Part shown: in pieces, positions 5,913-43,687 of the stretch
Layout: each line of letters begins with the position of its first letter
Numbering within the stretch: the stretch's first letter is position 1
The notes under the pieces: model-generated
Seen by the model: the letters and a program-made list of their open reading frames with translations, nothing else
Database searches by the model: none
Told to the model about the DNA's origin: nothing
Virus record (IMG/VR): IMGVR_UViG_3300029604_000306
Reading direction: 5' to 3' (one strand)
DNA from: a virus
Taxonomy: Duplodnaviria; Heunggongvirae; Uroviricota; Caudoviricetes
DNA length: 64,000 nucleotides
Made by a program: the position numbers and the translations under genes

Positions 5913-6668
5913 ATGCTTAAAAAGAAGCTCAAAACAAAAACAAAAACCAAACCAAAAAGAAGTCTAAAAACAAAATCCTCCATCCGGAAACGGCCTTCGC
6001 GCAAGCAGCGCCGCAATAAGAAGATGTACGAAGATGACTCTCTGCTGAATATCTGGAATGGACATGGCTTCGCAATGTGTGGCCTGGGCAAGAAATCCAT
6101 GTTTCTAGCAAAAGTCAAACATTTTTTCAAATGCATCAAATGGTCAAAGCAAAGAGCAAAAAGAGGTTTTGCAGACTACGATGTCTGGAACATGTACGGA
6201 TATCTTGAAGAACTGATGCCGGCGATGCTGCAGCATCTGAAAGATAACCGGATGGGAAGCCCGGCGATGCTCGGCCAAAACTATACTGATGAGCATGGCA
6301 TAATGCAGAACGATGCTTGCCACAAAGAATGGGACAAAATTCTTGACCGGATGATTTTTCTCTGGCGGGAACTTGACGAAGAGACATGCAGTGAGAAAAA
6401 TAAATACGAAAAAGAATATTCAAAAGCCTCTGATGAATTCTTTGATAAATACGGTTTCTTCGGGGAAGGCCTGGAAACAGAAGAAGAAAAAGAAAAAGCA
6501 AAAAAGACAGGCTCCAGGAGAGTGCATTTTATGAGTGAACTGCCGGAGTACGAAGAAATCAGCAGACTGCATATGGAAGAGGAAAAGAGGCTGGTGGAGT
6601 ATAGAGAAAAGTGTAAGGATGAGGTGTTTGACTTAATGAAGAAATATTTCTTCGCGTTGTGGGATTGA
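5913..6668 (+). CDS. hypothetical protein with a Lys/Arg-rich N-terminus (251 aa)
   Basis: aaaaggagatg RBS. Translationally close to the previous gene. Terminator at ~6677-6708. Confidence 0.55.
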   Translation: MLKKKLKTKTKTKPKRSLKTKSSIRKRPSRKQRRNKKMYEDDSLLNIWNGHGFAMCGLGKKSMFLAKVKHFFKCIKWSKQRAKRGFADYDVWNMYGYLEELMPAMLQHLKDNRMGSPAMLGQNYTDEHGIMQNDACHKEWDKILDRMIFLWRELDEETCSEKNKYEKEYSKASDEFFDKYGFFGEGLETEEEKEKAKKTGSRRVHFMSELPEYEEISRLHMEEEKRLVEYREKCKDEVFDLMKKYFFALWD

Positions 6669-6726
6669 GATTTAATGGGCGCTGCCTTCGGTGGCGCTTG
6701 TTTTTTTTGTAAAAATAGAAATCCTT

Positions 6727-6734
6727 CATATTAT
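6727..6734 (+). promoter_or_regulatory. (T)CATATTA box P9
   Basis: TTGTAAaaatagaaatccttCATATTA after the terminator T-run. Confidence 0.45.
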
Positions 6735-6783
6735 TATAGATATATGATATTATTTATATAAAAAAAGAAAGGAGAAAAAAGAA

Positions 6784-7002
6784 ATGGTAAAATACATTCT
6801 AATGCCGGAAGAGGCTATTCAGAAAATAAGAAAAGGAGACAAATTTTTTGTGGATGGCGAACTCAATCCGAATGCTGCCAGAATCATAACTGCGGCACAT
6901 AATGCATATTTTTGGGTAGATGACAACAATATGCCACATTGGACTGTGGACGCAGAGGGGGGCGGATGCTATGGATATGGAGAAATCTGCCAGCAGGTTT
7001 AA
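6784..7002 (+). CDS. hypothetical protein (72 aa)
   Basis: agaaaggagaaaaaagaaATG. Terminator at 7011-7042. Confidence 0.5.
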   Translation: MVKYILMPEEAIQKIRKGDKFFVDGELNPNAARIITAAHNAYFWVDDNNMPHWTVDAEGGGCYGYGEICQQV

Positions 7003-7058
7003 GTTTTTTGATACAGCCAGAAATTTTGGCTGTATTTTTTTTGTAAAAATGGAGAATT

Positions 7059-7067
7059 GGCATATTA
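7059..7067 (+). promoter_or_regulatory. GGCATATTA box P10
   Basis: TTGTAAaaatggagaattGGCATATTA. Confidence 0.5.
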
Positions 7068-7110
7068 AGAATGAAAATTTTTATTGAATCAGCAAAGAAA
7101 GGAAAATGAT

Positions 7111-7593
7111 ATGGAGAAATCAGTAGAAAAATTCTATGGAGAACACTATAAATACATGCAGCGGGCAATGTGGTGTATGGATGCCGCGATTGGCGAGGCA
7201 GCACGTTTTTCAAAAGTGGCGATTGTATCAACTGATGGATTTATAAAAAGGCCAGATTGTAAAACCGGAATTGATGCGGCATTAAATGCAGACGATACAA
7301 TTAACGTTATGGTAATTGTGGACTCTAAAAGTGACGCAACAACCCTCCTGAAATGGCTACAGAATATTTCTTGTGAACATCAGATGCAATTAGAACATTC
7401 AGATGAATTCCTTGATGTGAAAAATCAGGATGGATTCTATGGGATTTATGCGGTATTTGAGGTTAAATCAAAAGATAACAAATGTGGCCCTTTAAAGGTT
7501 CAGGTAAGAATCAGCATGCCAATATTGGATTGTATTACAGCATTAGAAAAGTGTTGCGAGTCTGAAGAAGTTAAACAACTTCTGGAAGTTTAA
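7111..7593 (+). CDS. hypothetical protein (160 aa)
   Basis: An agaaaggaaa RBS is spaced to the ATG at 7111. Confidence 0.55.
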   Translation: MEKSVEKFYGEHYKYMQRAMWCMDAAIGEAARFSKVAIVSTDGFIKRPDCKTGIDAALNADDTINVMVIVDSKSDATTLLKWLQNISCEHQMQLEHSDEFLDVKNQDGFYGIYAVFEVKSKDNKCGPLKVQVRISMPILDCITALEKCCESEEVKQLLEV

Positions 7594-10648: not shown

Positions 10649-11237
10649 TTTTTTTAACAGAATGACCGGCAGGGGTGAACTGCCAATCAGCAAAATGGCT
10701 GGTCTTCATCCCCCAGAGGACGAAGAGCATGAATATATAGAAGATATAATGCATAAAAAAATAAGCAGAGAGCTTTTGGCATCTGTTCTATGGTCAATAA
10801 TTGGGATTGCATTTATCATCGTATATATTTATATCCATGTAAAATCGAAATCAGAAATAACCATTTATTTCTTTATCACTCTTGCTGTGTTTGCCATGAT
10901 TGTTATTGTAAATACATACCGCTTTGCTGTTGTGGATAAAAAGCTTGACAAGATAGTCAAAGAAAGAAAGTACACGATAAGAGATGTTAAAGTGCATCAT
11001 GTGATGCCGGGCTATGGAACAAATTTTGGCAAACTAACTGTAAAGATTCAGGATGAACAGGAAAATGTGTATTATCAGGAATTTACACTCAATAGAAAAA
11101 TGGCAAAGATGTACAAAAACGACACAGATACAGCATTTATCCTGATAGCACTGGATAGAAATAAAAATATATACAGTCTTTTAAGCAAGAAGGAAGAACA
11201 GAAAAAAGAAAAGAGTGAAGAGGCAGCCGAAGAATAG
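10635..11237 (+). CDS. hypothetical membrane protein (~200 aa)
   Basis: It overlaps the ftsH stop. Two TM helices (LASVLWSIIGIAFIIVYIYI, ITLAVFAMIVIV). The start is uncertain (10635 or 10659). Confidence 0.45.
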   Translation: MQKDNFFNRMTGRGELPISKMAGLHPPEDEEHEYIEDIMHKKISRELLASVLWSIIGIAFIIVYIYIHVKSKSEITIYFFITLAVFAMIVIVNTYRFAVVDKKLDKIVKERKYTIRDVKVHHVMPGYGTNFGKLTVKIQDEQENVYYQEFTLNRKMAKMYKNDTDTAFILIALDRNKNIYSLLSKKEEQKKEKSEEAAEE

Positions 11238-28223: not shown

Positions 28224-28520
28224 ATGCGAAAAACAATGTATTCAGCAATGAAAAATCTAGCAGAATATATTGCCGGGAACGAAAGTTATGACTTTGAAAC
28301 TATCTGGAAAGAATGGGGTTCCAAATATAAACCATTAGAAGAAACCACTAAAGAATTAAAAAAGATGGGAGAAAGTTTATGTCAGATAGATAAGAGTGAC
28401 ATCAAATCGGTGCCGGAGAGGAGCTATCGTGAAACTATAAAAAAGATGTTAAAGCCAGAAATCAACAAGGAGGAGTTTTTTGATGGACACGTCAGTGACA
28501 AAGATGAATGCTGCCGATAA
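28224..28520 (+). CDS. hypothetical protein (98 aa). It overlaps the start of the sigma factor gene by 38 nt.
   Basis: aaaaggaggccgaaaaatATG. Ends …DKDECCR. Confidence 0.5.
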   Translation: MRKTMYSAMKNLAEYIAGNESYDFETIWKEWGSKYKPLEETTKELKKMGESLCQIDKSDIKSVPERSYRETIKKMLKPEINKEEFFDGHVSDKDECCR

Positions 28521-29499
28521 TGCTCAACTATTAGAAGAAAAGAAGGTAGTCTACAGTTCAAATGGAAAATACGACCCACAGGAGATTAATAAACTGGTCA
28601 AAGTATACCATATGGCACTTGAAGCGGGCGACAACGCAACGGTACAGGACGCATTTACGCAGATATACTATTTTATCAAAAATTACGTTTATAAAACACT
28701 TTGGGATAACTATCGCACACTTATGCAGAACAGATATCATCAGGAAGACATTGTTCAAGATGTGTGGATTAAGATTTTTTCGGAATTAAAAAATTACGAC
28801 CCTGACAAAGGTGCTATCACTACGTTCATAGCGCCATGGATTCGCCATGTGGTAAGCGATTATGCAAGCAAAAATTTCAGGAAAACCTCTGTGTATTATG
28901 CGAATGCCATGAAAAAAATCAATGGCGCGCAGAATTACTGTAAACAATATGGATTAAATGCAGATGACATTGAGACAATCATGAGCCTGACAGGGCTGTC
29001 AGAAGCGACCGTAAAGAATACTCTTGATTTAATGTCAAAAAAAGACAGCGTCTCATACGAAGCATTAATTGATGCGGGCGCAGACTATACAGCATCAATT
29101 AAAGGACCAGAAGAATCTGTTATTGAATCAGAATCAGAGGAAAACTTAAAAACAATCCTTAAGGATGTATTAACGGATGAAGAGCTTAATCTCTTAGAAC
29201 TGTTATTAAATCCTGAGAATTCAAGTAAAAAGCACTCCAGTTATCGCGAGATTGCAGAACAGATTCCAGGCAGTAATATTCCAAAAGTAAAACGTAAAAT
29301 ATCACGCATTACCACAAAGCTAAAAAATAATAAACAGTTTGCACAATTGTACCCTTATATTATCGCACAGGAAAAAGCATTGGAGGATAATTACATACCA
29401 GTCATGGGTGATGATGGGAATGAAGATGACGACATGTATGAGGAGTTCGATGACATGGACATGTCGGAAGGATGGAAAAGAACGAAAAAAAATAAGTAG
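28483..29499 (+). CDS. sigma-70-family RNA polymerase sigma factor (338 aa) with an acidic C-terminal tail
   Basis: Region 2 DIVQDVWIKIFSELKNYDPDKGAITTFIAPWIRHVVSDYASKN. Region 4 HTH-like YREIAEQIPGSNIPKVKRKISRITTKLK. caaggaggag RBS. Confidence 0.7.
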   Translation: MDTSVTKMNAADNAQLLEEKKVVYSSNGKYDPQEINKLVKVYHMALEAGDNATVQDAFTQIYYFIKNYVYKTLWDNYRTLMQNRYHQEDIVQDVWIKIFSELKNYDPDKGAITTFIAPWIRHVVSDYASKNFRKTSVYYANAMKKINGAQNYCKQYGLNADDIETIMSLTGLSEATVKNTLDLMSKKDSVSYEALIDAGADYTASIKGPEESVIESESEENLKTILKDVLTDEELNLLELLLNPENSSKKHSSYREIAEQIPGSNIPKVKRKISRITTKLKNNKQFAQLYPYIIAQEKALEDNYIPVMGDDGNEDDDMYEEFDDMDMSEGWKRTKKNK

Positions 29500-29535
29500 C
29501 CTGTCATACAGGCTCATGATACCGCGAGCTATGCT

Positions 29536-29880
29536 AGCTTGTCAGCCTCTGCGAGGCTTGGTAACGAGCCGGTAACGGCGAGTTATCATATTTATTCTGG
29601 TAACGAAGGCGTTAAGCCTGAGTTATCATTTTTAATCTGGTGCCGAGTCCTGTAAAGCAGGCGAGGTATCATGCGTGCTCTGGTGCCGAATCCGGCAAGG
29701 CCGGTGAGGCATCATATTCATTCTGGTACTGAGTGCGAAGCACGAAGTATCATATTTATTCTCTGCACTCAGCCTTACGGTTTCGCTTGACATTTGCTGC
29801 GCAAATTGGTAACGAGCCGATGCGACAAGGTATCATGCGTGCTCTGGTACCGACTCCGGCAAAGCCGGCGAGGTATCAAA
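29536..29880 (+). repeat. family-A/C hairpin-repeat array (7 A units plus 1 C module)
   Basis: Units read ctggtRNCGA-[4-5-bp stem, 3-4-nt loop, stem]-GAGGTATCAT-7 nt. Stem sequences differ between units (CCTG/CAGG, CCGGC/GCCGG, GCCG/CGGC, AGGC/GCCT, GTGC/GCAC) but remain complementary. Confidence 0.7.
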
Positions 29881-29955
29881 GTTGGACGAGGGCTTTCCTC
29901 CCGTCGATGATTTTTAAAAAAAATTAAAAAATCCGTCCGGTTCACAAATTATTCT

Positions 29956-29963
29956 GCATATTG
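29956..29963 (+). promoter_or_regulatory. GCATATTG box P18 (no protein gene downstream)
   Basis: attctgcatattgattc. The next convincing CDS begins at 31472. Confidence 0.45.
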
Positions 29964-29969
29964 ATTCTG

Positions 29970-30842
29970 ATGATACAGATGACAGCCAGGAACTTTACAA
30001 AAAGTCCTGAAGGACCTTACTGATATTGTACAAAGAAACGAAAAAAAATAAAAAGAAGCAGGAAATTCGTGGAAATATCACGCGGTCAAATTAAATATTG
30101 AGGTGTCACCTCTACCAAGAGGACGTTAATTATTGTTTTTTTGCATAAAGATAAAAAAAGAAAGACAAAATCAGCAAAAATAATAAAAAAAAACGTGATG
30201 AGAACGAGACATATGCTGCAGTAATGCAGAGCAAGGACCAATCTGGTTACTAAAACAACGTTAAGTGTTGCCGAGCGGTAAAAGTCGAGCAGGGAGCGGA
30301 GAAAATAGTTTGGTCTTAGACTATCCGATGACCTAAGGGGGTGTAGTGCGTTGCAAGCCCTTTGCCTAATACGTAGTTGTATGCGTAAGATGCGAAAGCA
30401 CGGGTGAAAGCCTGGTTAAGAGTAGGACGCGGGGGAGTTTGTGGATAACGGAATCCGCGGGAATAAAGACAAACTGCATATACAGTTGATGTAATAAAAC
30501 CGCAACAGGAGGAAGTGAAGCACAGATGCACAGACAGCTTGCGGGCTGCCGGGACCTGTAGGATGATGGAAACATCATGGCGTGTGGGATGTGCCATAGA
30601 TTGTACAGAAGAAATGTATAATTTAGACTACGCCAAAATCAGCACGGCTGATTTGAACTGCAGGGTTGCGCTCTCCGATAAACTCTTCGATAAGTTTTTC
30701 GATGAGTGCGACTGCTATCTAAGACCGTCATGATGTGAAGCGACCGATTCCGACGGGCTACATAAAATCTGAGCAGAATGGCATAGCGTTATCCTTCTTC
30801 CGCGCAGACGCATACCATTAGAGGGAGAGTCTGCGCTTTTTC
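29970..30842 (+). ncRNA. candidate large structured non-coding RNA (boundaries tentative)
   Basis: GC-enriched with no ORF carrying a properly spaced SD. A 9-bp long-range complement ggtcttaga(30313)/tctaagacc(~30720) pairs across it. It ends at the hairpin gcgcagac…gtctgcgc plus T5 (~30801-30842). Confidence 0.3.
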
Positions 30843-31471
30843 GCAAGGAGAAACTATGTCAATCTGCTCAGCTCCCTCCTCCTCTGGGCTGCATGGCGGC
30901 CAAAGGCCGCCTTTCAAAACGTATGGTTACGAAATATAAATTTACTTTTTTCAAGGTGTAACGTTGAGATGGCAACTGGGAATGCAGCCCATTAACGAAG
31001 GGTGTGATTTATCCGGTAAAGCGACATCACGCATCGTAATAACACTCAACATGTCAAAACTTTTAGAATATATGAATCACGCCCGCACTAACGAAAGGAA
31101 AAAGCTGAGACAAGACATGTACACTGCAAAATCTTCATATATCTGGAACGCGAAGATACTGGATATCACGATATATATGAATTTTAAGAAAACTTATAGG
31201 ATATCCAGTATCGGAGCGGATAGAGCCTTCCGCGATTTTGTAGTGTACATGTCTTGTCTCGAGGTCAGAGTAATCGGCTTGCCGATTAGGATGACCTCCA
31301 TGTTTTTTATATACGTTTTTTATATACAAATACACTGTTCTTCCAAATATTTATCATATTGTACATAGAGAACCGGGACACAAACGACGTGTCTGCAACA
31401 ACTGGCCATTGCATCAACACTTTAAATTCCTGTTTCGGTTATCGGCAACAAAACACACAGGAGGATAAAAT

Positions 31472-32536
31472 ATGTTTTTTGTTATAGTTATTCTAGTAAT
31501 AATCATCGTATTCCTGGCGAACCAGATACGTATCGTCCCTCAGCAGGCATGCTACATTATTGAACGCCTTGGAAAATACAGCACAACGTGGGAGGCTGGC
31601 CTGCATGTGAAAGTTCCAGTCATTGATAAGATTGTAAAGAAAATCTCCATCAAGGAACAGGTGTACGATTTTCCGCCACAGGATGTTATCACAAAAGATA
31701 ACGTCACAATTAGTATCGATTCTGTCGTGTATGCAAGTGTTTTCGACCCAAAATTGTATACATATGGGATTGAGAAACCTATCACTGGTTTACAGAATTT
31801 GACAGCCACGACTCTCAGAAGTATTATTGGCGCCATGGAATTAGACCAGACACTGTCTTCGAGAGCAGATATCAACCGCCAGATGCAGGATGTGCTTGAT
31901 GAAGCAACTGATGAATGGGGTATTAAGGTATCACGCGTGGAGGTCAAAAATATCAAGCCACCGAAAGAGATTGAAGAGGTCATGACAAAGCAGATGAGGG
32001 CTGAAAGAGAAAGACGCCAGACCGTATTGGAAGCACAGGCACATAAAGAATCTGTAGTATCCAGGGCAGAAGGTGATAAGCAGGCGAAACTGCTTGACGC
32101 AGAAGCTGAGAGAGACGCAAAAATTGCTCTTGCGAAAGGCCAGGCGGAGGCTATCAGGCTTGTATATGAAGCAGAAGCAGAAGGACTTAGAAGGCTTGCG
32201 GAGTCAGGCGTAAATGAAAATATTTTACGTTTAAAATCTATTGAGGCGATGAAGGATGTAGCCGATGGCCGGGCTACAAAAATCTTTATCCCAAATAATC
32301 TGGCAGAAGGTGTCGGGCCTGCAGCGATTGCCGGCGAGGCTTTTTGGGGAGCAACAAAGGAACCTAAAAAGGAATTCTCAAATGCCGAAGCGGAAAAAAT
32401 CCGAAAAGAAAGATGCGTCAAAAAGACGGTGTCTGAGGATGCCTGTATGAAAGCACCAAGGACGAAAGTAAGTATGCAGTCGGCGATGACTAATGCGGGA
32501 ATGGTCCATGATATGCATAAGGACGAAACTGACTGA
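31472..32536 (+). CDS. SPFH/band-7 (stomatin/HflK/C-like) membrane protein
   Basis: N-terminal TM, then an SPFH core (IVPQQACYIIERLGKY…GLHVKVPVIDKI…ISIDSVVYASV…) followed by a coiled-coil. acaggaggat RBS. Confidence 0.8.
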   Translation: MFFVIVILVIIIVFLANQIRIVPQQACYIIERLGKYSTTWEAGLHVKVPVIDKIVKKISIKEQVYDFPPQDVITKDNVTISIDSVVYASVFDPKLYTYGIEKPITGLQNLTATTLRSIIGAMELDQTLSSRADINRQMQDVLDEATDEWGIKVSRVEVKNIKPPKEIEEVMTKQMRAERERRQTVLEAQAHKESVVSRAEGDKQAKLLDAEAERDAKIALAKGQAEAIRLVYEAEAEGLRRLAESGVNENILRLKSIEAMKDVADGRATKIFIPNNLAEGVGPAAIAGEAFWGATKEPKKEFSNAEAEKIRKERCVKKTVSEDACMKAPRTKVSMQSAMTNAGMVHDMHKDETD

Positions 32537-32694: not shown

Positions 32695-33549
32695 ATGGCA
32701 AGACATAATTATGTGAGTGTTCTTGCGCTGGTACGAAAGGAACCAAAATTCAAAGACACAGTTGACGGAAGAGCCGGAATCGTTGGTCTTACAACGATTA
32801 TGAGTGGAAGAGAGTACGACAAGGCTACAAGCGGTTATCAATTAAACAGTGTTTCTTTTTGTGCCAGAACACAGGAAAAAGAAATCCTTGATGTGATGGA
32901 TACATTGCAGTTATGGGATGTTGTAAAAATGACAGGATTTTTAGCAACAAGAGAAAAAGATAAAAAAGCAGAGTGTCCGTTTTGCAATGCGGTCAACCGA
33001 AGAGTTGATGCATGCGTAAGAAACGGAAAGCCAAAATCCGGTGGTAATGAGATTTTTGTATATCCAATTACGCTAAGAGTAGAGGAGAAGTTTGAAACCG
33101 AGCAGGCAGCGTACGAGTATCTGCATGCAAACGAAGAGGATGCAAACCGTGTGTTTGTGCTTGGTAATTTAACAAACTCTCCTATCCACGGGGAGCTGCA
33201 GGGAGGACGAAAGCCGTATACAAGATTCCAGCTGGCTATCAACCGTAAGTATTGCCCAAAGGGCGGAAATGAAATGTACGAAAGGACAGATTATCCGTGG
33301 GTGTATTCTTATGGCGACAAATCTATCGAAGATTACCAGAATCTTGAAAAAGGTGCCCTCGTATTTGTAGATGGCGCCCTGCAGGCAAGAAAATTTAAAG
33401 AACAGTATACCTGTGGAGTATGCGGCGAAGAGTATGACGTAAGGGGAAGGACACTGGAAGTCCTTTCATACGATACAGAATATCTTAGACTTCCGAACCT
33501 GGCTCCGGATGACGAAGAAGACGATGATGAGAACGAAGATTCAGAGTAA
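32695..33549 (+). CDS. SSB-like single-stranded-DNA-binding protein with two OB-fold-like segments, a Zn ribbon and an acidic tail
   Basis: The N-terminus NYVSVLALVRKEPKF resembles the SSB NRVxLVGRLxxDPE start. A second segment NRVFVLGNLTNSPIH follows. CPFC…C ribbon. C-terminal DDEEDDDENEDSE tail. Confidence 0.45.
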   Translation: MARHNYVSVLALVRKEPKFKDTVDGRAGIVGLTTIMSGREYDKATSGYQLNSVSFCARTQEKEILDVMDTLQLWDVVKMTGFLATREKDKKAECPFCNAVNRRVDACVRNGKPKSGGNEIFVYPITLRVEEKFETEQAAYEYLHANEEDANRVFVLGNLTNSPIHGELQGGRKPYTRFQLAINRKYCPKGGNEMYERTDYPWVYSYGDKSIEDYQNLEKGALVFVDGALQARKFKEQYTCGVCGEEYDVRGRTLEVLSYDTEYLRLPNLAPDDEEDDDENEDSE

Positions 33550-37466: not shown

Positions 37467-39068
37467 TCAGGCCGCTGCTTTGTATTGGTCGTTACGTGAT
37501 TTGTATATCATCTTAAGATTCTTCTGTAACTCATTATGTTTATACTTATACTTTTCGCATATCTCCTGTATTTCCTGGTCGTCGATTCTTGCCTTGATGT
37601 TCAGGCTTCCAACATAATCCGCATCCGCTTCATATCCGCAGCACTTGCATTTAAAAGACTTGCCATTGCGGTTGTCTTTTTCAAGATGGCTGCATACCGG
37701 ACATGTCTGGCTGGTGTAATCCGGTATAATTTCCTTGAAATCATAGCCATACCAGTTTAAAGTCTCCATGAGCTTCTTCTGCAGCTTCCCTCTCGCAAAT
37801 GTTGACATCATACCGTTAGACTTACGACTTTTGTTAAATTCCCTGATATCCAGTTTTTCTAGGACTGTCAGGGTATCATGTGAGATTGATTCTATATATC
37901 TGTCTATGCTTGATTTAATCTCATGGTCAAGTGTTTCATAATAGCAGCGCTTCTTGCGGTATGGGGCATCAGCCTTTTGAATCATCTGGTCAAGCCGGTC
38001 CATCTTTTTGATGAGAGAACGTCTCACATCTTCCGGAAGGGCCTTATGTCTTCGCAGGTAATGGCTGATACTGCGTTTTTTATTTCTCATGTCAGACAGC
38101 GAAGCGAATGACTTTTCCACTGTATCGTGGTAAAAAGCAATCACCGGCTTCATGCTGCCGATTGGTTTATCTTCAGATGTATGCAGTGTGTCAGAGATAC
38201 CGACATCAACGCCTACCACATTTGAAGTCTTTGGCTGTTTCATTTTTGACTCATAACTCCATCCGACCTGCAGGATTCCGTTTTCATCAATTGACGCCAT
38301 GACTGTACCGGCCATTTTATGTGATTTGATTTTATTGGCAGAATGTCTGCTTGTGTTAATCGGTATTACGATTCTTTCTGCGTTTTTATGTAAAGCGTCG
38401 CTTATCTTAATCACATATGGCATGACGGTATCTGTTGATACTTCAATCTTCATCAGCCTGCTGTCAAGAGGCATATGCGCCCGTCTTAATTCTGGGACAC
38501 GGTATTCCATTGATAAACTGATATACATATCCATGAATTCCACCTGTTTAAATGTAAACTCGTCGTCTGACATTTCATTCAGGATACTGATACAGTCTTC
38601 ATAGAAAGCCTTGTCTTTCTTTGTTTTAGACGCAATCTGTTTCATAGTGCTCAGCATCTCAGACTTCGTCTTGGAATCAATGGACATTGCAAACAGGACT
38701 TTTGATGATGTAAAGACTGACTGTTCTTCTGTATACATATCCTGCCGGATGCTATCCATACGGTTAGAAAGATGGGTCACCGCCATGTCAAAGGCATTCT
38801 GAGAGAATGCAGAATTTGCATTTTTCGGACGGATGGATTTTTCAAACTTGCGGATGTCACTGCTCTTCTTATCATTTTTTACGATTTGAAGTGTAAATTT
38901 ATCATTACCCGCAAGGAGTCTGATATATCCATTTACCATCTTTGTAAATTCATTCTGCATATCCCGGATGATTTTAGATTTGTCTTTATTCGGGCTGCCA
39001 TACAGAAATACACTTTTCGTCATAGAAGTTTCAAACTGCGTATCTTTGCGTCTTCTCGCCTTTGCCAT
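37467..39068 (-). CDS. TnpB/Cas12-family RuvC-like nuclease with a C-terminal zinc ribbon (533 aa)
   Basis: RuvC-I VVGVDVGISDT, RuvC-II TLTVLEKLDIREFN, Zn ribbon CPVCSHL…CKCCGY, and RuvC-III EADADYVGSLNIKAR. rc aaggagg RBS with the ATG at 39068. Its own GCATATTA box sits on the minus strand. Confidence 0.75.
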   Translation of the reverse strand: MAKARRRKDTQFETSMTKSVFLYGSPNKDKSKIIRDMQNEFTKMVNGYIRLLAGNDKFTLQIVKNDKKSSDIRKFEKSIRPKNANSAFSQNAFDMAVTHLSNRMDSIRQDMYTEEQSVFTSSKVLFAMSIDSKTKSEMLSTMKQIASKTKKDKAFYEDCISILNEMSDDEFTFKQVEFMDMYISLSMEYRVPELRRAHMPLDSRLMKIEVSTDTVMPYVIKISDALHKNAERIVIPINTSRHSANKIKSHKMAGTVMASIDENGILQVGWSYESKMKQPKTSNVVGVDVGISDTLHTSEDKPIGSMKPVIAFYHDTVEKSFASLSDMRNKKRSISHYLRRHKALPEDVRRSLIKKMDRLDQMIQKADAPYRKKRCYYETLDHEIKSSIDRYIESISHDTLTVLEKLDIREFNKSRKSNGMMSTFARGKLQKKLMETLNWYGYDFKEIIPDYTSQTCPVCSHLEKDNRNGKSFKCKCCGYEADADYVGSLNIKARIDDQEIQEICEKYKYKHNELQKNLKMIYKSRNDQYKAAA

Positions 39069-39101
39069 TCGTCTCACCTCCTTGCCTTTTCATTACATAT
39101 T

Positions 39102-40047: not shown

Positions 40048-41148
40048 ATGGCGACAACAGATATTTTATACAGATATTTTAAAGCCAGACAGGAAGTAAA
40101 TGAAAACGGACATGCAGAAACTCTTGCTCAATGCATCCATTACAATCGCGGAGTTGATGCAGTGGTCCTTGATATGAAAGATAAAGGACTGGCTCAAAAA
40201 ATATTAAAAGAAACAGATATAAATGACGCTTTTGACTCATGGCTGTTGGATATTGCTGGAAACTTGGTTTTAATATATCCACGAGAACAAAGAGAAAAAT
40301 ACATGGAAATTCAGCCACATTTGGTGCTTGGAGAAAAACTGGTGCAGTATGGAGGATTTTCGCACAGCGAAGCAAAAGGTATGATAGATTTTCTTAAGGA
40401 AGCAGGAGTGGATTATAAGCAGTCTATCGGAGAGGATGGAAGGATTAGCTTTTTGCTTGCAGAAAATAAAGAATATATATTTAAAAACGCGATGGATACA
40501 ATAAAGCGAGAAGAAACCACGGAAGTTGGCGAAAAACATTTCGTATCACAGAATTTGTATTGGCGCTATGCCATCAACCAGGCTTCAAAGGCGCTAAATC
40601 ATGATGGCGTTGTATTTTTAGGGAGTGAAGCAGGGACGCGTGGAATAAGAATTGACAAAAATGGAGCAATCAGTATGAATCCATTAAAAAAAGGACGTTT
40701 TATTCCCAAAAATGACCCGGATTATGAGCGTAAAGTATTGAATGAAATTCTGAATACGATGAACGGAAAAGAATTTCCTGTGAAAGTTTTTTATGGAGAA
40801 CTCGCCGATGTAATGAGCAAGGATATGACGCGTAAAAGTTTACGGGAATCCCCTCTGATGCTAAAAAAGAGAGAAGCATTGGATATATTAAATTTAAGTG
40901 ATATCCCTTCTGTTGATGAAATTGGAAAGATGGTAAACAATCTTGAGGACTATGGGGACCGCGAAAGAAAAGCGATTTATTCTTTGATGCGGATGCGGGT
41001 ATGTCGTGATTACAAGATAGAAGATATCCAAGCGTACAAGATGTCTAAGCAGGATAAGCAGGATTATAAACAGATGCATGAACAACATATAAAACAATTT
41101 GCGAAAGGATGTAGACAAGACAGGGAGGGGCTGGTAGATGAAAGATGA
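40048..41148 (+). CDS. hypothetical protein (366 aa), translationally coupled to the coupling-protein gene
   Basis: aaaggaggaaaaatatATG. The stop overlaps the next gene by 11 nt. It is a possible relaxosome or accessory component with no motif support. Confidence 0.5.
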   Translation: MATTDILYRYFKARQEVNENGHAETLAQCIHYNRGVDAVVLDMKDKGLAQKILKETDINDAFDSWLLDIAGNLVLIYPREQREKYMEIQPHLVLGEKLVQYGGFSHSEAKGMIDFLKEAGVDYKQSIGEDGRISFLLAENKEYIFKNAMDTIKREETTEVGEKHFVSQNLYWRYAINQASKALNHDGVVFLGSEAGTRGIRIDKNGAISMNPLKKGRFIPKNDPDYERKVLNEILNTMNGKEFPVKVFYGELADVMSKDMTRKSLRESPLMLKKREALDILNLSDIPSVDEIGKMVNNLEDYGDRERKAIYSLMRMRVCRDYKIEDIQAYKMSKQDKQDYKQMHEQHIKQFAKGCRQDREGLVDER

Positions 41149-43687
41149 TAAAGAACTTGAACAGAAAAAGCTTGCCTTTGTCTTGTATGGCATCTTGTGG
41201 TTTATTGGCCTGATGATAGCTGGTGCATTTGGCTATCAGAAGCATACACAGGATGGAGCAAGTATTTTTTCAGCAGTGGAAGCGGTATCCCATTTTGGTA
41301 TCTTCTATTGGTTAAATCCGGTAAGCTGGGGTACATGCTTGAGATGGACGTTTATATATTGGATTGGTGTAGCGCTTTTCATGATATATGAGCAAAAATG
41401 GAAACATGATGCGGCCGGTAAAGAGGCCGGCTCGGCTCATTGGAATAAGAAAGTTGAAGAATTTAACCAAGGACATTCGGAGCCGTTTGGTGAAAAGACT
41501 TTTAGTGACGAGCCTGGTCTGACAAAAAAAATGGGTGGGGAAAACCTGAACAATAAAAAGACACCACCAGTACCAGGAAACCCTAACATGATAGAATCGG
41601 AATTGGTAAGGCTGTCAACAGCTGATATGAAAACACATTTGAATAACAATGTTTTTATTGTCGGTGGTGCTGGTACTGGTAAATCACGATTTTTTATAAA
41701 GCCAAACGTATTACAGATGAACTGCTCTTACATAGTAACAGACCCTTCCGGAGAGCTTCTGAAATCAATGCATAACGTATTGGTTGAGAATGGGTATAAG
41801 ATAAAAGTATTTAACTTGGTCGATATGTCTCATTCAAATAAGTACAATCCATTCCGATACGTCAGGAGCGAAACAGATGTCAGTATTCTGGTGGACTGTT
41901 TTATTTCAAACACAACAGGTCCGGACCAAAAAAGCGGCGACCCGTTCTGGGATAAATCGGAAAAGGCTTTGCTCTCAGCGCTGGTATTTTATCTTGTTGA
42001 TATTGCTGATGCAGAGTTTAGGAAGTTCTCAACCATTTTGTGGATGGTACAGTTGGCACAGATGGATGAAAACGGCCGGCCAGGTCAAAAGCCATCGTCT
42101 GAATTTGGCTTCTCTATAGATATGCCGCTTGATGAATTGTTTGATGGAACAAAAAAAATCGGTAAAAAAACAATTACAGATAAAAAGACAGGAAAGAAAC
42201 AGACGGTGCTGGATGCTGTGGAGGTTACGGACCAAAAAGAAATTGGAAGGCTGCGTGATAAAATAGAGACTTCACTTTGCCTCACCAACTATAAGACGTT
42301 CAAACTTGGTGGAACAAAAACGTTGAAATCCATCTTGATTTCAGCTGCTGTTAGACTGAACCCATTTAGTATTCCGGCAATCCAGAATTTGACAGATGAT
42401 GATAACGTGGAACTGGAGAAGGTGGGTGATGAATTGACGTGCTTTTTTGCAATCATTCCGCAGACGAACAGCACATTTAACTTCTTGATTTCCATGCTGT
42501 TCTCTCAGATGTTTGAATCTTTATATTATAAGGGTGCCACAATACCGAATAGCCGGCTTCCATATCATGTAAGGTTCCTGCTCGATGAGTTCGCCAACAT
42601 CGGCAAGATTCCGGAATTCCCACAGAAGATTTCCACTTGCCGAAAATATAATATATCAACAACGATTGTCCTGCAGTCTATTGCACAGATAAAAATGCTG
42701 TATAAGGATGACTATGAGACAATCATCGGTAACTGTGACACCGCAATCTGCCTTGGTACAAATGAGCAGACTACGGCAGATTATTTCAGTAAAAAACTTG
42801 GAAAAGGTACCATCACGTCGAGAAGTAAATCCACGCCCGTGGGCAAGAGCGGAGGCAATCTATCGTTTAACCAAACAGGACGTGAATTGATGCTTCCAGA
42901 TGAGATAATGACCATGCCGTTTGACAAATGTATTGTCATGATGCGAGGAATCGACCCATTTTATGATAGTAAATATCCACTGGAAAAGCATCCACAGTTT
43001 ATGAAAACAGGTGATGGGGATGAAAAAAACTTTTATTTCCTGGAGCAGGACGAAGAGTTTTCGTGCGTTGATAAGTCAGTAGAATATGAGGAGATAGCCG
43101 AGCAGGAAGAAAATAATGATACAGTAAGCGAAAAGTACCAGCCTAAAACACTGGAAGAAGTGCTGGACGGAATTCTGGTCAACTATCCGGAAGAAGATGG
43201 ATATTATCTGATTAAGGATGCAGATAATAACAAAACAAGGAATTCAATGATTACAAAGTACAGTGAATTGCTGGAAGACACAATCCAGATGTCTATGGGT
43301 AACGACGAAACAACGATATTGTTTGACGGGAAAAATATGGATATTGCTCTTGCAAAAGGTCTGATAAACAGGGCTTTTGAACAACATGACGGGGAATTTG
43401 AGGATTTAGCCGTTGCCTGCAACGGAATCAGTGATGGACATGTGTGCTGGTTCGGCGCAAAGAATGACCAATGTAATATCGTTAAAGTAGCAGAACGATT
43501 ACAGTTGTCATTATCCAAGAAAAAACGAGGAAACATATCCAGGCAGGATTTATATAAAGTTAACGATATCCTATCAGAAGATAAGTTTGAAGAATTAAAA
43601 AAAGGATGTAAAAATGGTGCTCATTGTATGGCTTCACAAAAAAATAACGATGTAGATTTTGATGATTATGATGATGATAATGATTGA
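41138..43687 (+). CDS. type IV secretion coupling protein (VirD4/TraG/TraD family ATPase), 849 aa
   Basis: Two N-terminal TM helices. Walker A IVGGAGTGKSRFF. Walker B/DE box FLLDEFANIGKIPEF. Acidic C-terminal tail. Confidence 0.85.
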   Translation: MKDDKELEQKKLAFVLYGILWFIGLMIAGAFGYQKHTQDGASIFSAVEAVSHFGIFYWLNPVSWGTCLRWTFIYWIGVALFMIYEQKWKHDAAGKEAGSAHWNKKVEEFNQGHSEPFGEKTFSDEPGLTKKMGGENLNNKKTPPVPGNPNMIESELVRLSTADMKTHLNNNVFIVGGAGTGKSRFFIKPNVLQMNCSYIVTDPSGELLKSMHNVLVENGYKIKVFNLVDMSHSNKYNPFRYVRSETDVSILVDCFISNTTGPDQKSGDPFWDKSEKALLSALVFYLVDIADAEFRKFSTILWMVQLAQMDENGRPGQKPSSEFGFSIDMPLDELFDGTKKIGKKTITDKKTGKKQTVLDAVEVTDQKEIGRLRDKIETSLCLTNYKTFKLGGTKTLKSILISAAVRLNPFSIPAIQNLTDDDNVELEKVGDELTCFFAIIPQTNSTFNFLISMLFSQMFESLYYKGATIPNSRLPYHVRFLLDEFANIGKIPEFPQKISTCRKYNISTTIVLQSIAQIKMLYKDDYETIIGNCDTAICLGTNEQTTADYFSKKLGKGTITSRSKSTPVGKSGGNLSFNQTGRELMLPDEIMTMPFDKCIVMMRGIDPFYDSKYPLEKHPQFMKTGDGDEKNFYFLEQDEEFSCVDKSVEYEEIAEQEENNDTVSEKYQPKTLEEVLDGILVNYPEEDGYYLIKDADNNKTRNSMITKYSELLEDTIQMSMGNDETTILFDGKNMDIALAKGLINRAFEQHDGEFEDLAVACNGISDGHVCWFGAKNDQCNIVKVAERLQLSLSKKKRGNISRQDLYKVNDILSEDKFEELKKGCKNGAHCMASQKNNDVDFDDYDDDND

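Follow-up and report, generated by a model that had tools for sequence, protein, structure and literature searches.

The IMG/VR virus record IMGVR_UViG_3300029604_000306, a stretch of 64,000 nucleotides (nt) that was analyzed at its full length and is called the window here, raises the question of what is encoded between its sigma-factor gene (28480-29499, Sigma70_r2) and its SPFH/Band-7 gene (31472-32536), where no convincing gene is found. An inspection of the letters and their open reading frames (ORFs), referred to as the sequence-only reading, had interpreted this 1.5-kb region as an RNA-centered, non-coding locus and as a candidate for a large structured RNA. We propose that the locus encodes a large non-coding RNA with extensive structure, which belongs to an uncatalogued family and of which about 0.9 kb is conserved on the + strand, and we assign a probability of roughly 0.6 to this interpretation. 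The central claim of the sequence-only reading was upheld by conservation across four lineages, the lack of a conserved ORF, compensatory base changes and strand-specific folding.

On the + strand, the only ORFs longer than 60 amino acids (aa) between the sigma-factor and SPFH genes are a 72-aa frame (Table 1) and a 134-aa frame with a TTG start (30964-31368). Both turned out to be spurious by polymorphism and conservation, in line with the scarcity of ORFs described before. The GC enrichment relative to the surroundings was likewise reproduced. In 200-nt windows, GC fractions of 0.45-0.525 were measured over 30200-30999, compared to about 0.30-0.41 in the flanks (0.295-0.385 at 29900-30299 and 0.32-0.41 at 31000-31500). 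The enriched block spans 30190-30870, and the core of the RNA has a GC content of 47.3% vs. 40.0% for the whole window. Folding of the region yielded -210 kcal/mol for the + strand (z = -2.8) and -165 kcal/mol for the - strand (z = -1.1), and the + strand of a copy from a phage-like element (L013, see below) folded with a z score of -4.5. GNRA and UUCG tetraloops as well as many G:U pairs were found for the + strand only.

Homologues were identified by protein-anchored retrieval and motif scans, and they fall into four lineages and three contexts. The window type is represented by 12 near-identical copies (1-3% divergent) on human-gut metagenome contigs, to which a look-up added 10 more, and it is present in hundreds of public gut assemblies. 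In a related megaplasmid (L001; SPFH protein 70% identical, flanking genes 71-75% identical at the DNA level), the sigma-factor and SPFH genes are adjacent, and the entire 2-kb cassette is missing between them. In L001, a promoter box is located about 5 kb further on, together with related hairpin units and the 5' portion of the RNA, inside which the contig ends. In another relative of the same megaplasmid family (L003/L004), the 3' two-thirds of the RNA lie directly upstream of the SSB gene and are cut by the contig start. The fourth lineage (L013) is a 12.5-kb element with genes for TerS, TerL, integrase, ParA, portal, protease and major capsid protein, which looks phage-satellite-like or phage-plasmid-like. 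Its RNA copy is complete (about 6350-7290), with a run of short direct repeats on one side and a strong terminator on the other. L013 showed no tail genes. The direct repeats of about 11-12 nt (CATAAAAACGGA, CATAAAACGGG, CGTAAAATCGGG and others, 6230-6300), just upstream of the RNA copy, follow ParA and three small ORFs and are iteron-like or centromere-like.

The gene downstream of the RNA is SPFH in the window, SSB in L003, and a neck gene together with the portal gene in L013. A promoter-like element upstream of the RNA was noted for each lineage, and the position of the RNA varies among related elements. The RNA was not located near SSB in most other megaplasmid relatives examined by SSB-anchored retrieval, and a relative of L013 obtained by retrieval of the portal family (L077) does not carry it. 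Relatives without the RNA lack the whole intergenic cassette, with no sign of a precise, intron-like excision. First pattern scans of metagenomes and genomes returned no matches, and the core motif was absent from 185,579 species-representative genomes. A second metagenome pattern scan returned 12 near-identical copies and one chance match. Among viral contigs, five motif patterns revealed one new true homologue (L013), the remaining matches being the L001 contig or chance; one pattern from the 3' part gave 24 chance matches, because this motif resembles a ribosome-binding site followed by ATG. Neither the region nor the L013 copy had a BLAST match among annotated phages and plasmids. The RNA is therefore sporadically distributed and mobile in its position, but copies of the window type are frequent in gut samples.

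None of the reading frames stays open across all lineages. Among the window-type copies, polymorphism at the three codon positions is flat in both frames (4.2/4.2/5.6% in the 72-aa ORF and 9.7/10.4/9.7% in the 134-aa ORF), whereas the flanking genes show the expected excess at the third position (0.8/0.8/3.7% for SPFH and 0/0.4/5.6% for SSB). Protein-like conservation with third-position wobble, which would have spoken for an unusual gene, was therefore tested for and not found. The 134-aa ORF additionally carries frameshifting indels of 2 nt and 13 nt, and neither frame is open in L013 or L003. A search of 5.8 billion proteins returned no homologues of the 72-aa ORF beyond its own 90% cluster, and the spurious frames gave no Pfam match.

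Constraint at the level of nucleotides and helices is evident from the comparison of the megaplasmid copies with L013. The sequence blocks conserved between them include CGU.AUGAGAAC; GUUAAGUG; GCCGAGCGGYAAAAGUCG; AAGGGG.U.DAG.GCGUU.CAAG; GCCUAA; and a 22-mer in which 21 of 22 positions (R = A or G at the remaining one) agree between the megaplasmid and the unrelated phage-like element. The hairpins between these blocks vary in sequence and length while their pairing is kept. For instance, the stem of the leader hairpin reads CCUC/GAGG in the window, CCCC/GGGG in L001 and GGUA/UACC in L013, around a constant (C)UACCAA loop. The stem of the GUAA hairpin is CUGCA/UGCAG in the window and CCGCA/UGCGG in L001, and the stem of hairpin Pc is GGGGG/CCCUU in the window and GGGGU/ACCUC in both L013 and L003. 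A candidate pseudoknot pairing changes from CAACG/CGUUG in the window to AAACG/CGUUU in L013. Sequence differences with maintained pairing between the window and L003 are also seen in several helices of the 3' domain. The alignment of orthologs and the covariation test that the sequence-only reading had called for gave helices kept by compensatory changes in both domains of the RNA.

These changes were quantified with covariance models. In 288 kb of related loci, a model of the core (R1), built from window-type sequences only and supplied with our proposed structure, detected only L013 (56 bits, E = 7e-16) and L003 (32 bits, E = 4e-8); 99.6% of the cells of its alignment pair. Eleven of the 37 core pairs were changed on both sides, compared to 2.3 +/- 1.3 in shuffles (none of 500 reached the observed count) and 0-3 in slid controls. 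A second model (R2), which spans 30553-30735, aligned L003 (18.7 bits, E = 0.003). Here, 38 pairs could be compared between the window and L003: 19 were identical, 6 were changed on one side, 10 were changed on both sides (0-3 in slid controls) and 3 were broken. RNAalifold, applied to an independent, unguided MAFFT alignment, also recovered hairpins Pb and Pc with compensatory pairs.

Several structural details of the sequence-only reading have to be corrected. The 9-bp long-range complement does exist (30312-30320 and 30718-30726) but is at chance level, as at least one perfect 9-nt inverted pair occurs in 43% of dinucleotide shuffles and a long-range one in 23%; a natural variant (U30314C in L029) disrupts it without compensation. 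The GTGCG motif, found at 30346 and 30706, is trivial, and its copy at 30346 is located in the loop of Pc. Finally, the hairpin and U5 of the strong intrinsic terminator proposed at 30801-30842 are present but lie inside a conserved rod and are not demonstrably the 3' end.

From the extent of conservation, we place the start of the RNA at about 29975 and its end at 30870 or beyond on the + strand (Table 1). Similarity to L001 begins at about 30031 in pairwise alignment, and similarity to L003 runs on to a GUCAAU block at 30858-30863, which also closes the L013 copy. The conserved RNA hence covers only about 0.9 kb of the 1.5-kb region, and the remainder (30871-31471) is a fast-evolving, non-coding spacer. 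The RNA is also not confined to the GC-rich block but starts well upstream of it, with the leader hairpin in front of the block. Polymorphic sites among the window-type copies amount to 6.7% in the leader (29965-30190), 2.0% in the core (30191-30436, without indels), 4.7% in the 3' part (30437-30865) and 9.9% in the spacer (30866-31471), and the 675 nt from 30191 to 30865 are free of indels.

The RNA appears to end in a terminal rod, in which paired, conserved sequence extends past the tip hairpin to 30870. The tip hairpin has an 8-bp GC-rich stem, a 19-nt loop and a U-run reaching 30841, and was not called by a terminator scan. The rod is present in L003 as well, but with other 5' strands (AUUGACGUAGC/GCUAUGUCAAU and CUUUUCUU/AGGAGAAG). 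In the rod of the window, a natural variant (A30791C) converts the one A.G mismatch into a C:G pair. An alternative helix, GCUA/UAGC (30714-30717/30784-30787), was rejected in favor of the better supported rod, which uses the same 3' strand.

Table 1. Coordinates of the RNA, its parts and flanking features in the window
Feature	Position	Strand	Remark
Tandem hairpin array, 40-43-nt units	29500-29900	+	Upstream of the box here; between box and RNA in L001
Promoter-like box TTATTCTGCATATTGA	29949-29964	+	Perfect copy of the element-specific motif
Box motif sites, examples	17926, 29949, 32609, 40006, 61138		In the window
5' leader domain, AT-rich, variable	29975-30190	+	L001/L013 alignment; 6.7% polymorphic
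Leader hairpin CCUC/GAGG with invariant loop (C)UACCAA	30109-30122	+	Also L001 11331-11344, L013 6447-6461
Core, highly conserved	30191-30436	+	Model R1 matches; 2.0% polymorphic
Core block CGUGAUGAGAAC	within 30191-30436	+	
GUAA hairpin in core	30216-30229	+	
Core block GUUAAGUG	between GUAA hairpin and Pa	+	Conserved between megaplasmid and L013
Candidate pseudoknot	30256-30260 with 30349-30353	+	
Hairpin Pa, loop GCGGYAAAAG	30270-30290	+	
Hairpin Pb, variable	30297-30327	+	
Hairpin Pc	30337-30362	+	
Core block GCCUAA, then variable hairpins	hairpins 30370-30414	+	
Invariant 22-mer GGUUAARAGUAGGACGCGGGGG	30414-30435	+	
3' multi-helix domain	30437-30769	+	Model R2, helix table
3'-domain helix	30436-30442/30469-30475	+	
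72-aa Cys-rich ORF, GTG start	30515-30733	+	Spurious frame inside the RNA
3'-domain enclosing helix	30555-30561/30658-30664	+	
3'-domain helix	30579-30584/30629-30634	+	
3'-domain hairpin	30636-30654	+	
3'-domain long hairpin	30665-30712	+	
3'-domain conserved block GCUAUCUAAGACCGUCAU	30714-30731	+	
3'-domain helix	30725-30729/30752-30756	+	
Terminal rod	30770-30870	+	30770-30786 with 30854-30870: 17-nt inverted repeat, 88% complementary
Rod inner helix	30789-30796 with 30845-30852	+	3' strand AAGGAGAA is Shine-Dalgarno-like but a helix strand
Rod tip hairpin	30802-30836, followed by U5	+	GCGCAGAC (30802-30809) pairs with GUCUGCGC (30829-30836)
Spacer, poorly conserved, non-coding	30871-31471	+	9.9% polymorphic
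Spacer hairpin	30895-30912	+	
Spacer 27-nt inverted repeat, arms 100 nt apart, with nested 13-nt inverted repeat	31107-31133/31234-31260		
Spacer terminator-like hairpin, 18 bp, then U-run	31261-31298	+	

The promoter box of the sequence-only reading was confirmed as a perfect copy of an element-specific motif (TTATTYTGCATATTRA). With up to 3 mismatches allowed, this motif occurs 15 times in the window, compared to 1.55 expected copies, and none of 100 shuffles reached 15. The copies are mostly on the + strand, and several are located about 90 nt upstream of gene starts. Similar boxes precede the RNA in L001 and the SSB gene in both L003 and L009. The box is probably a promoter read by the sigma factor that the element itself encodes (28480-29499).

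The hairpin array upstream of the box was also recovered, and its units share a common plan. A basal stem (GGUAAC/GUUAUC) covaries between units (e.g., GGUGCC/GGUAUC) and is followed by a GA-rich internal loop and a variable apical hairpin of GNRA type. Copy number is strain-variable, the distance from the sigma-factor stop codon to the 72-aa ORF ranging from 783 to 1540 nt (including L078-L087). L001 carries related units (11000-11170), including a 27-nt piece in inverted orientation with 100% identity. The array may belong to the same RNA system, or it may be an independent repeat element of RNA or DNA. Downstream of the rod, the spacer might belong to the transcript as a 3' tail. A long hairpin and a terminator in an analogous arrangement, but of unrelated sequence, occur in L003 (about 487-572 and 860-890), and therefore the downstream architecture is conserved while its sequence evolves fast.

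The element that carries the RNA encodes, within the window, its own sigma factor, SPFH, an unusual 284-aa SSB, a beta-clamp homologue, an FtsH-like protease, a Sir2 protein, signal peptidase, sortase and surface proteins. Further genes encode a TnpB-like protein, a type IV coupling protein, topoisomerase III, a RecD2-like helicase and a ParM-like actin, and there is an ORF of 2443 aa. Relatives add SecY and SecE, and copies of the element are found on contigs of up to 403 kb. This gene content fits a conjugative megaplasmid and matches the recently described class of 'Hodor' megaplasmids of the human gut (PMC12934698). The description of that class mentions neither a non-coding RNA nor a sigma factor (PMC12934698).

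Several other genes of this element deserve mention. The SSB homologue (32695-33549) has an N-terminal extension of about 150 residues before its OB fold. Its relatives give faint zinc-ribbon matches, and the family comprises at least 61 proteins specific to the megaplasmid group. On the - strand, a 536-aa ORF (37467-39077) with a Cas12f1-like/TnpB TNB domain represents the only gene for an RNA-guided nuclease. It is of the IS605 family and has been inserted in the interval that separates the beta-clamp gene from the coupling-protein region. The coupling-protein gene itself is intact in the window (41138-43687). It is split by a reverse-transcriptase ORF (RVT_1) in L003 (9931-11352) and L011 (18366-20276), which indicates insertion of a group II intron.

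Several points weigh against a stand-alone RNA gene or limit how far the data carry it. The 3 broken pairs of the 3' domain all fall in one predicted hairpin (30563-30578), which L003 does not keep. As its sequence, GAUGAUGGAAACA, is conserved all the same, this stretch probably has a role other than forming the hairpin. Model R2 did not detect the 3' domain of L013. Variation within the population is weakly informative (15 paired sites kept, 7 paired sites broken and 20 unpaired sites). With four lineages, two of them cut by contig ends, independent covariation events are few, and the alignments used for counting pairs were partly fitted to the model. Transcription, transcript ends and abundance are all things that we infer from the DNA, and action in trans is argued by analogy and from the absence of a constant neighboring gene. 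Moreover, read-through from the RNA into the SPFH gene is possible, because the box motif does not occur between 29964 and 32609 and hence not between the RNA and the SPFH gene.

This last point leads to the main rival explanation, a giant cis-acting leader. The RNA would then be the 5' untranslated region of an SPFH-SSB operon and act as an oversized riboswitch or attenuator, with control exerted by the hairpin and U-run at 30802-30841 and by sequestration of the Shine-Dalgarno-like AAGGAGAA (30845-30852). We regard it as the main rival because no box precedes SPFH and because the rod at the 3' end combines a hairpin, U5 and an anti-Shine-Dalgarno-like helix, whose pairing is conserved and even improved by the natural variant described above. 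In addition, AGGAGAANCUAUG resembles a ribosome-binding site with a start codon, and the RNA and the genes downstream of it share one strand in every lineage. The downstream gene, however, differs by lineage, whereas a riboswitch would be expected to precede the same or a functionally related gene in most members, and SSB in L003 has its own box. The features of an expression platform (hairpin with U5, anti-Shine-Dalgarno-like helix) are present in the window and in L003 but absent in L013, where a strong terminator follows the RNA without the Shine-Dalgarno-like helix. The short ORF behind the Shine-Dalgarno-like sequence has 27 codons in the window and 3 in L003, and about 600 nt of fast-evolving spacer with more terminator-like hairpins precede SPFH. 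Size and two-domain complexity are also far above those of known leaders. The lack of a constant neighboring gene, the terminator behind the L013 copy and the long, decaying spacer in front of SPFH argue against a dedicated cis-regulator, and a leader role appears unlikely to us.

Strand-specific covarying hairpins are also a property of the single-strand origins of rolling-circle plasmids. The conserved region could therefore act as DNA, namely, as single-stranded DNA, as a lagging-strand priming site, as a single-strand origin or promoter used after conjugation or rolling-circle replication, or as part of a replication origin. The surrounding genes for SSB, beta clamp, coupling protein, topoisomerase and helicase would suit such an element, as would the position of the L013 copy next to ParA and direct repeats of about 12 nt. 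Nevertheless, the conserved length of about 700 nt is several times that of known single-strand origins or priming sites, and GNRA/UUCG tetraloops and G:U pairs are typical of RNA. In every lineage, the region is also bracketed by a promoter-like box or, in L013, by a promoter and a terminator. Regarding replication origins, the published description of these megaplasmids assigns oriV to an AT-rich region beside Rep_3 and places oriT upstream of the relaxase gene (PMC12934698), whereas the region described here is GC-enriched. Since both sites are assigned to Rep_3 and the relaxase gene, respectively, oriV and oriT are not in this region, and the locus was rejected as the megaplasmid replication origin. 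Overall, we rate an element acting at the DNA level as improbable, and more so than a leader.

Three further candidates were tried and rejected. A type III toxin-antitoxin system (ToxI-like repeats followed by a toxin) lacks the toxin gene downstream, and a retron lacks the reverse transcriptase. A guide RNA of the TnpB-like nuclease (37467-39077) would be encoded 6.6 kb away from its protein and on the other strand.

A divergent or degenerate member of GOLLD, ROOL, OLE, the group I or II introns, RNase P or tmRNA could have been missed by the models. The RNA would qualify by being large, ornate and carried by Firmicute mobile elements with a variable 5' part in front of a conserved remainder, as known for GOLLD and ROOL (PMC12286853), and by the presence of GTGCG. 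However, an Rfam 15 cmscan of the 64 kb at gathering thresholds gave no match, and searches of 29400-31600, 30000-30900 and the L013 copy with relaxed filters up to E = 10 returned only noise from microRNA and sRNA models. Neither the window nor the L013 copy was matched by GOLLD (RF01998) or ROOL (RF03087), and scans of the window with OLE (RF01071), HEARO/omega RNA (RF02033), RNase P, 6S and SRP were equally negative. ARAGORN detected no tRNA or tmRNA in the window. The suggested search for GOLLD, ROOL, OLE, HEARO and intron families thus matched none of them, and the GOLLD/ROOL type proposed by the sequence-only reading applies in kind but not in model. A group II intron was rejected as there is no Intron_gpII match, no reverse-transcriptase ORF and no exon junction in the relatives without the RNA, and as the GTGCG at 30346 is in the Pc loop. 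A group I intron was rejected as there is no Intron_gpI match and the RNA is intergenic in all lineages. With no intron-style flanking exons and with the whole cassette missing from relatives without the RNA, rather than a precise excision, membership in a known family seems very improbable to us. A protein-coding locus with the 72-aa Cys-rich and/or the 134-aa frame as real small genes is hardly conceivable, as the calls by gene callers and the exact sequences in a protein collection are outweighed by the flat codon-position polymorphism, the frameshifting indels, the closed frames in L013 and L003 and the lack of homologues and Pfam matches described above.

We return to the interpretation as a structured RNA gene. 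The nucleotide-level constraint, the conserved helices, the invariant unpaired blocks, the changing position and the upstream promoter-like element argue for a stand-alone RNA, which by analogy with other large RNAs of mobile elements would most likely act in trans. The element-specific box at 29949-29964 would drive transcription, plausibly together with the sigma factor that the element itself encodes. The folded RNA would then work in trans for the benefit of the mobile element and would be neither an mRNA nor a leader for one particular gene. It could serve as a scaffold or in assembly, bind a host factor or act as a ribozyme, as has been proposed for the phage RNAs GOLLD and ROOL. The invariant blocks and the CUACCAA loop of the leader hairpin are likely sites of functional contact.

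The CUACCAA loop is complementary to UUGGUAG, a common tRNA D-loop sequence, with a longer match of 9 nt in the window (CUCUACCAA). This complementarity may be coincidental, and we treat it as a lead only. Tentatively, and with clearly less confidence than for the RNA gene as such, the RNA could found a third family of giant ornate RNAs beside GOLLD and ROOL, borne by human-gut conjugative megaplasmids and phage satellites, with its core as a catalytic center or as an RNA-only multimer interface that manipulates a host component. It is speculative that this component would be tRNA, addressed through the CUACCAA/UUGGUAG complementarity.

The number of known bacterial RNAs that are both large and intricately folded is very small, and each of them has opened a line of work, as seen for ribozymes, the OLE ribonucleoprotein and the solved GOLLD and ROOL cages. 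A further family would be useful, since it is found on common conjugative megaplasmids of the gut as well as on a small phage-like element, and it would help to explain what such RNAs do for mobile elements. With a 22-nt block that varies at one position (A/G) across unrelated hosts and with two defined domains, the RNA would be a new target for structural biology. It would also add a functional non-coding gene to a new class of megaplasmids, whose published description mentions no RNA genes. As the window type is present in hundreds of public gut assemblies, expression and population data already exist.

How does the RNA compare to known systems? OLE is an ornate RNA of about 600 nt from anaerobic Firmicutes, which is chromosomal and linked to oap genes. 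The RNA described here shares with it long invariant stretches between helices but is carried by mobile elements with changing neighbors and is not matched by the OLE model. ROOL is an elaborate stand-alone RNA of about 600-660 nt with pseudoknots, found in phages and prophages of Firmicutes, with no constant protein partner and no known function (PMC12286853). Our RNA is likewise large, folded, sporadic and without a constant protein partner. It differs in the missing model match, in the absence of tRNA genes from the 64-kb window and in its hosts, which are conjugative megaplasmids and a capsid-encoding, satellite-like element. GOLLD exceeds 800 nt and combines a less conserved 5' region with a conserved remainder; it is phage-borne, and its function is unknown (PMC12286853). 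A similar layout is seen here, with a variable AT-rich leader (6.7%) in front of a conserved core (2.0%), but the RNA is not matched by the model, has no adjacent or embedded tRNA in the window and carries other conserved motifs. GOLLD and ROOL are usually located near tRNA islands. Because no model matches and no tRNA is found in the window, membership in either family is excluded as far as testable.

Candidate structured RNAs have also been compiled in bulk from human microbiomes (PMC8040213) and from viruses (PMC10690425), i.e., from the same data sources, gut metagenomes and IMG/VR. As far as checked, neither study names or describes such an RNA, and its conserved motifs were absent from 200 searchable supplementary files of the former (PMC8040213). 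It could still be an unnamed entry in these lists. Taken together, the RNA is best filed as a new family within a known kind, the large ornate RNAs of mobile elements.

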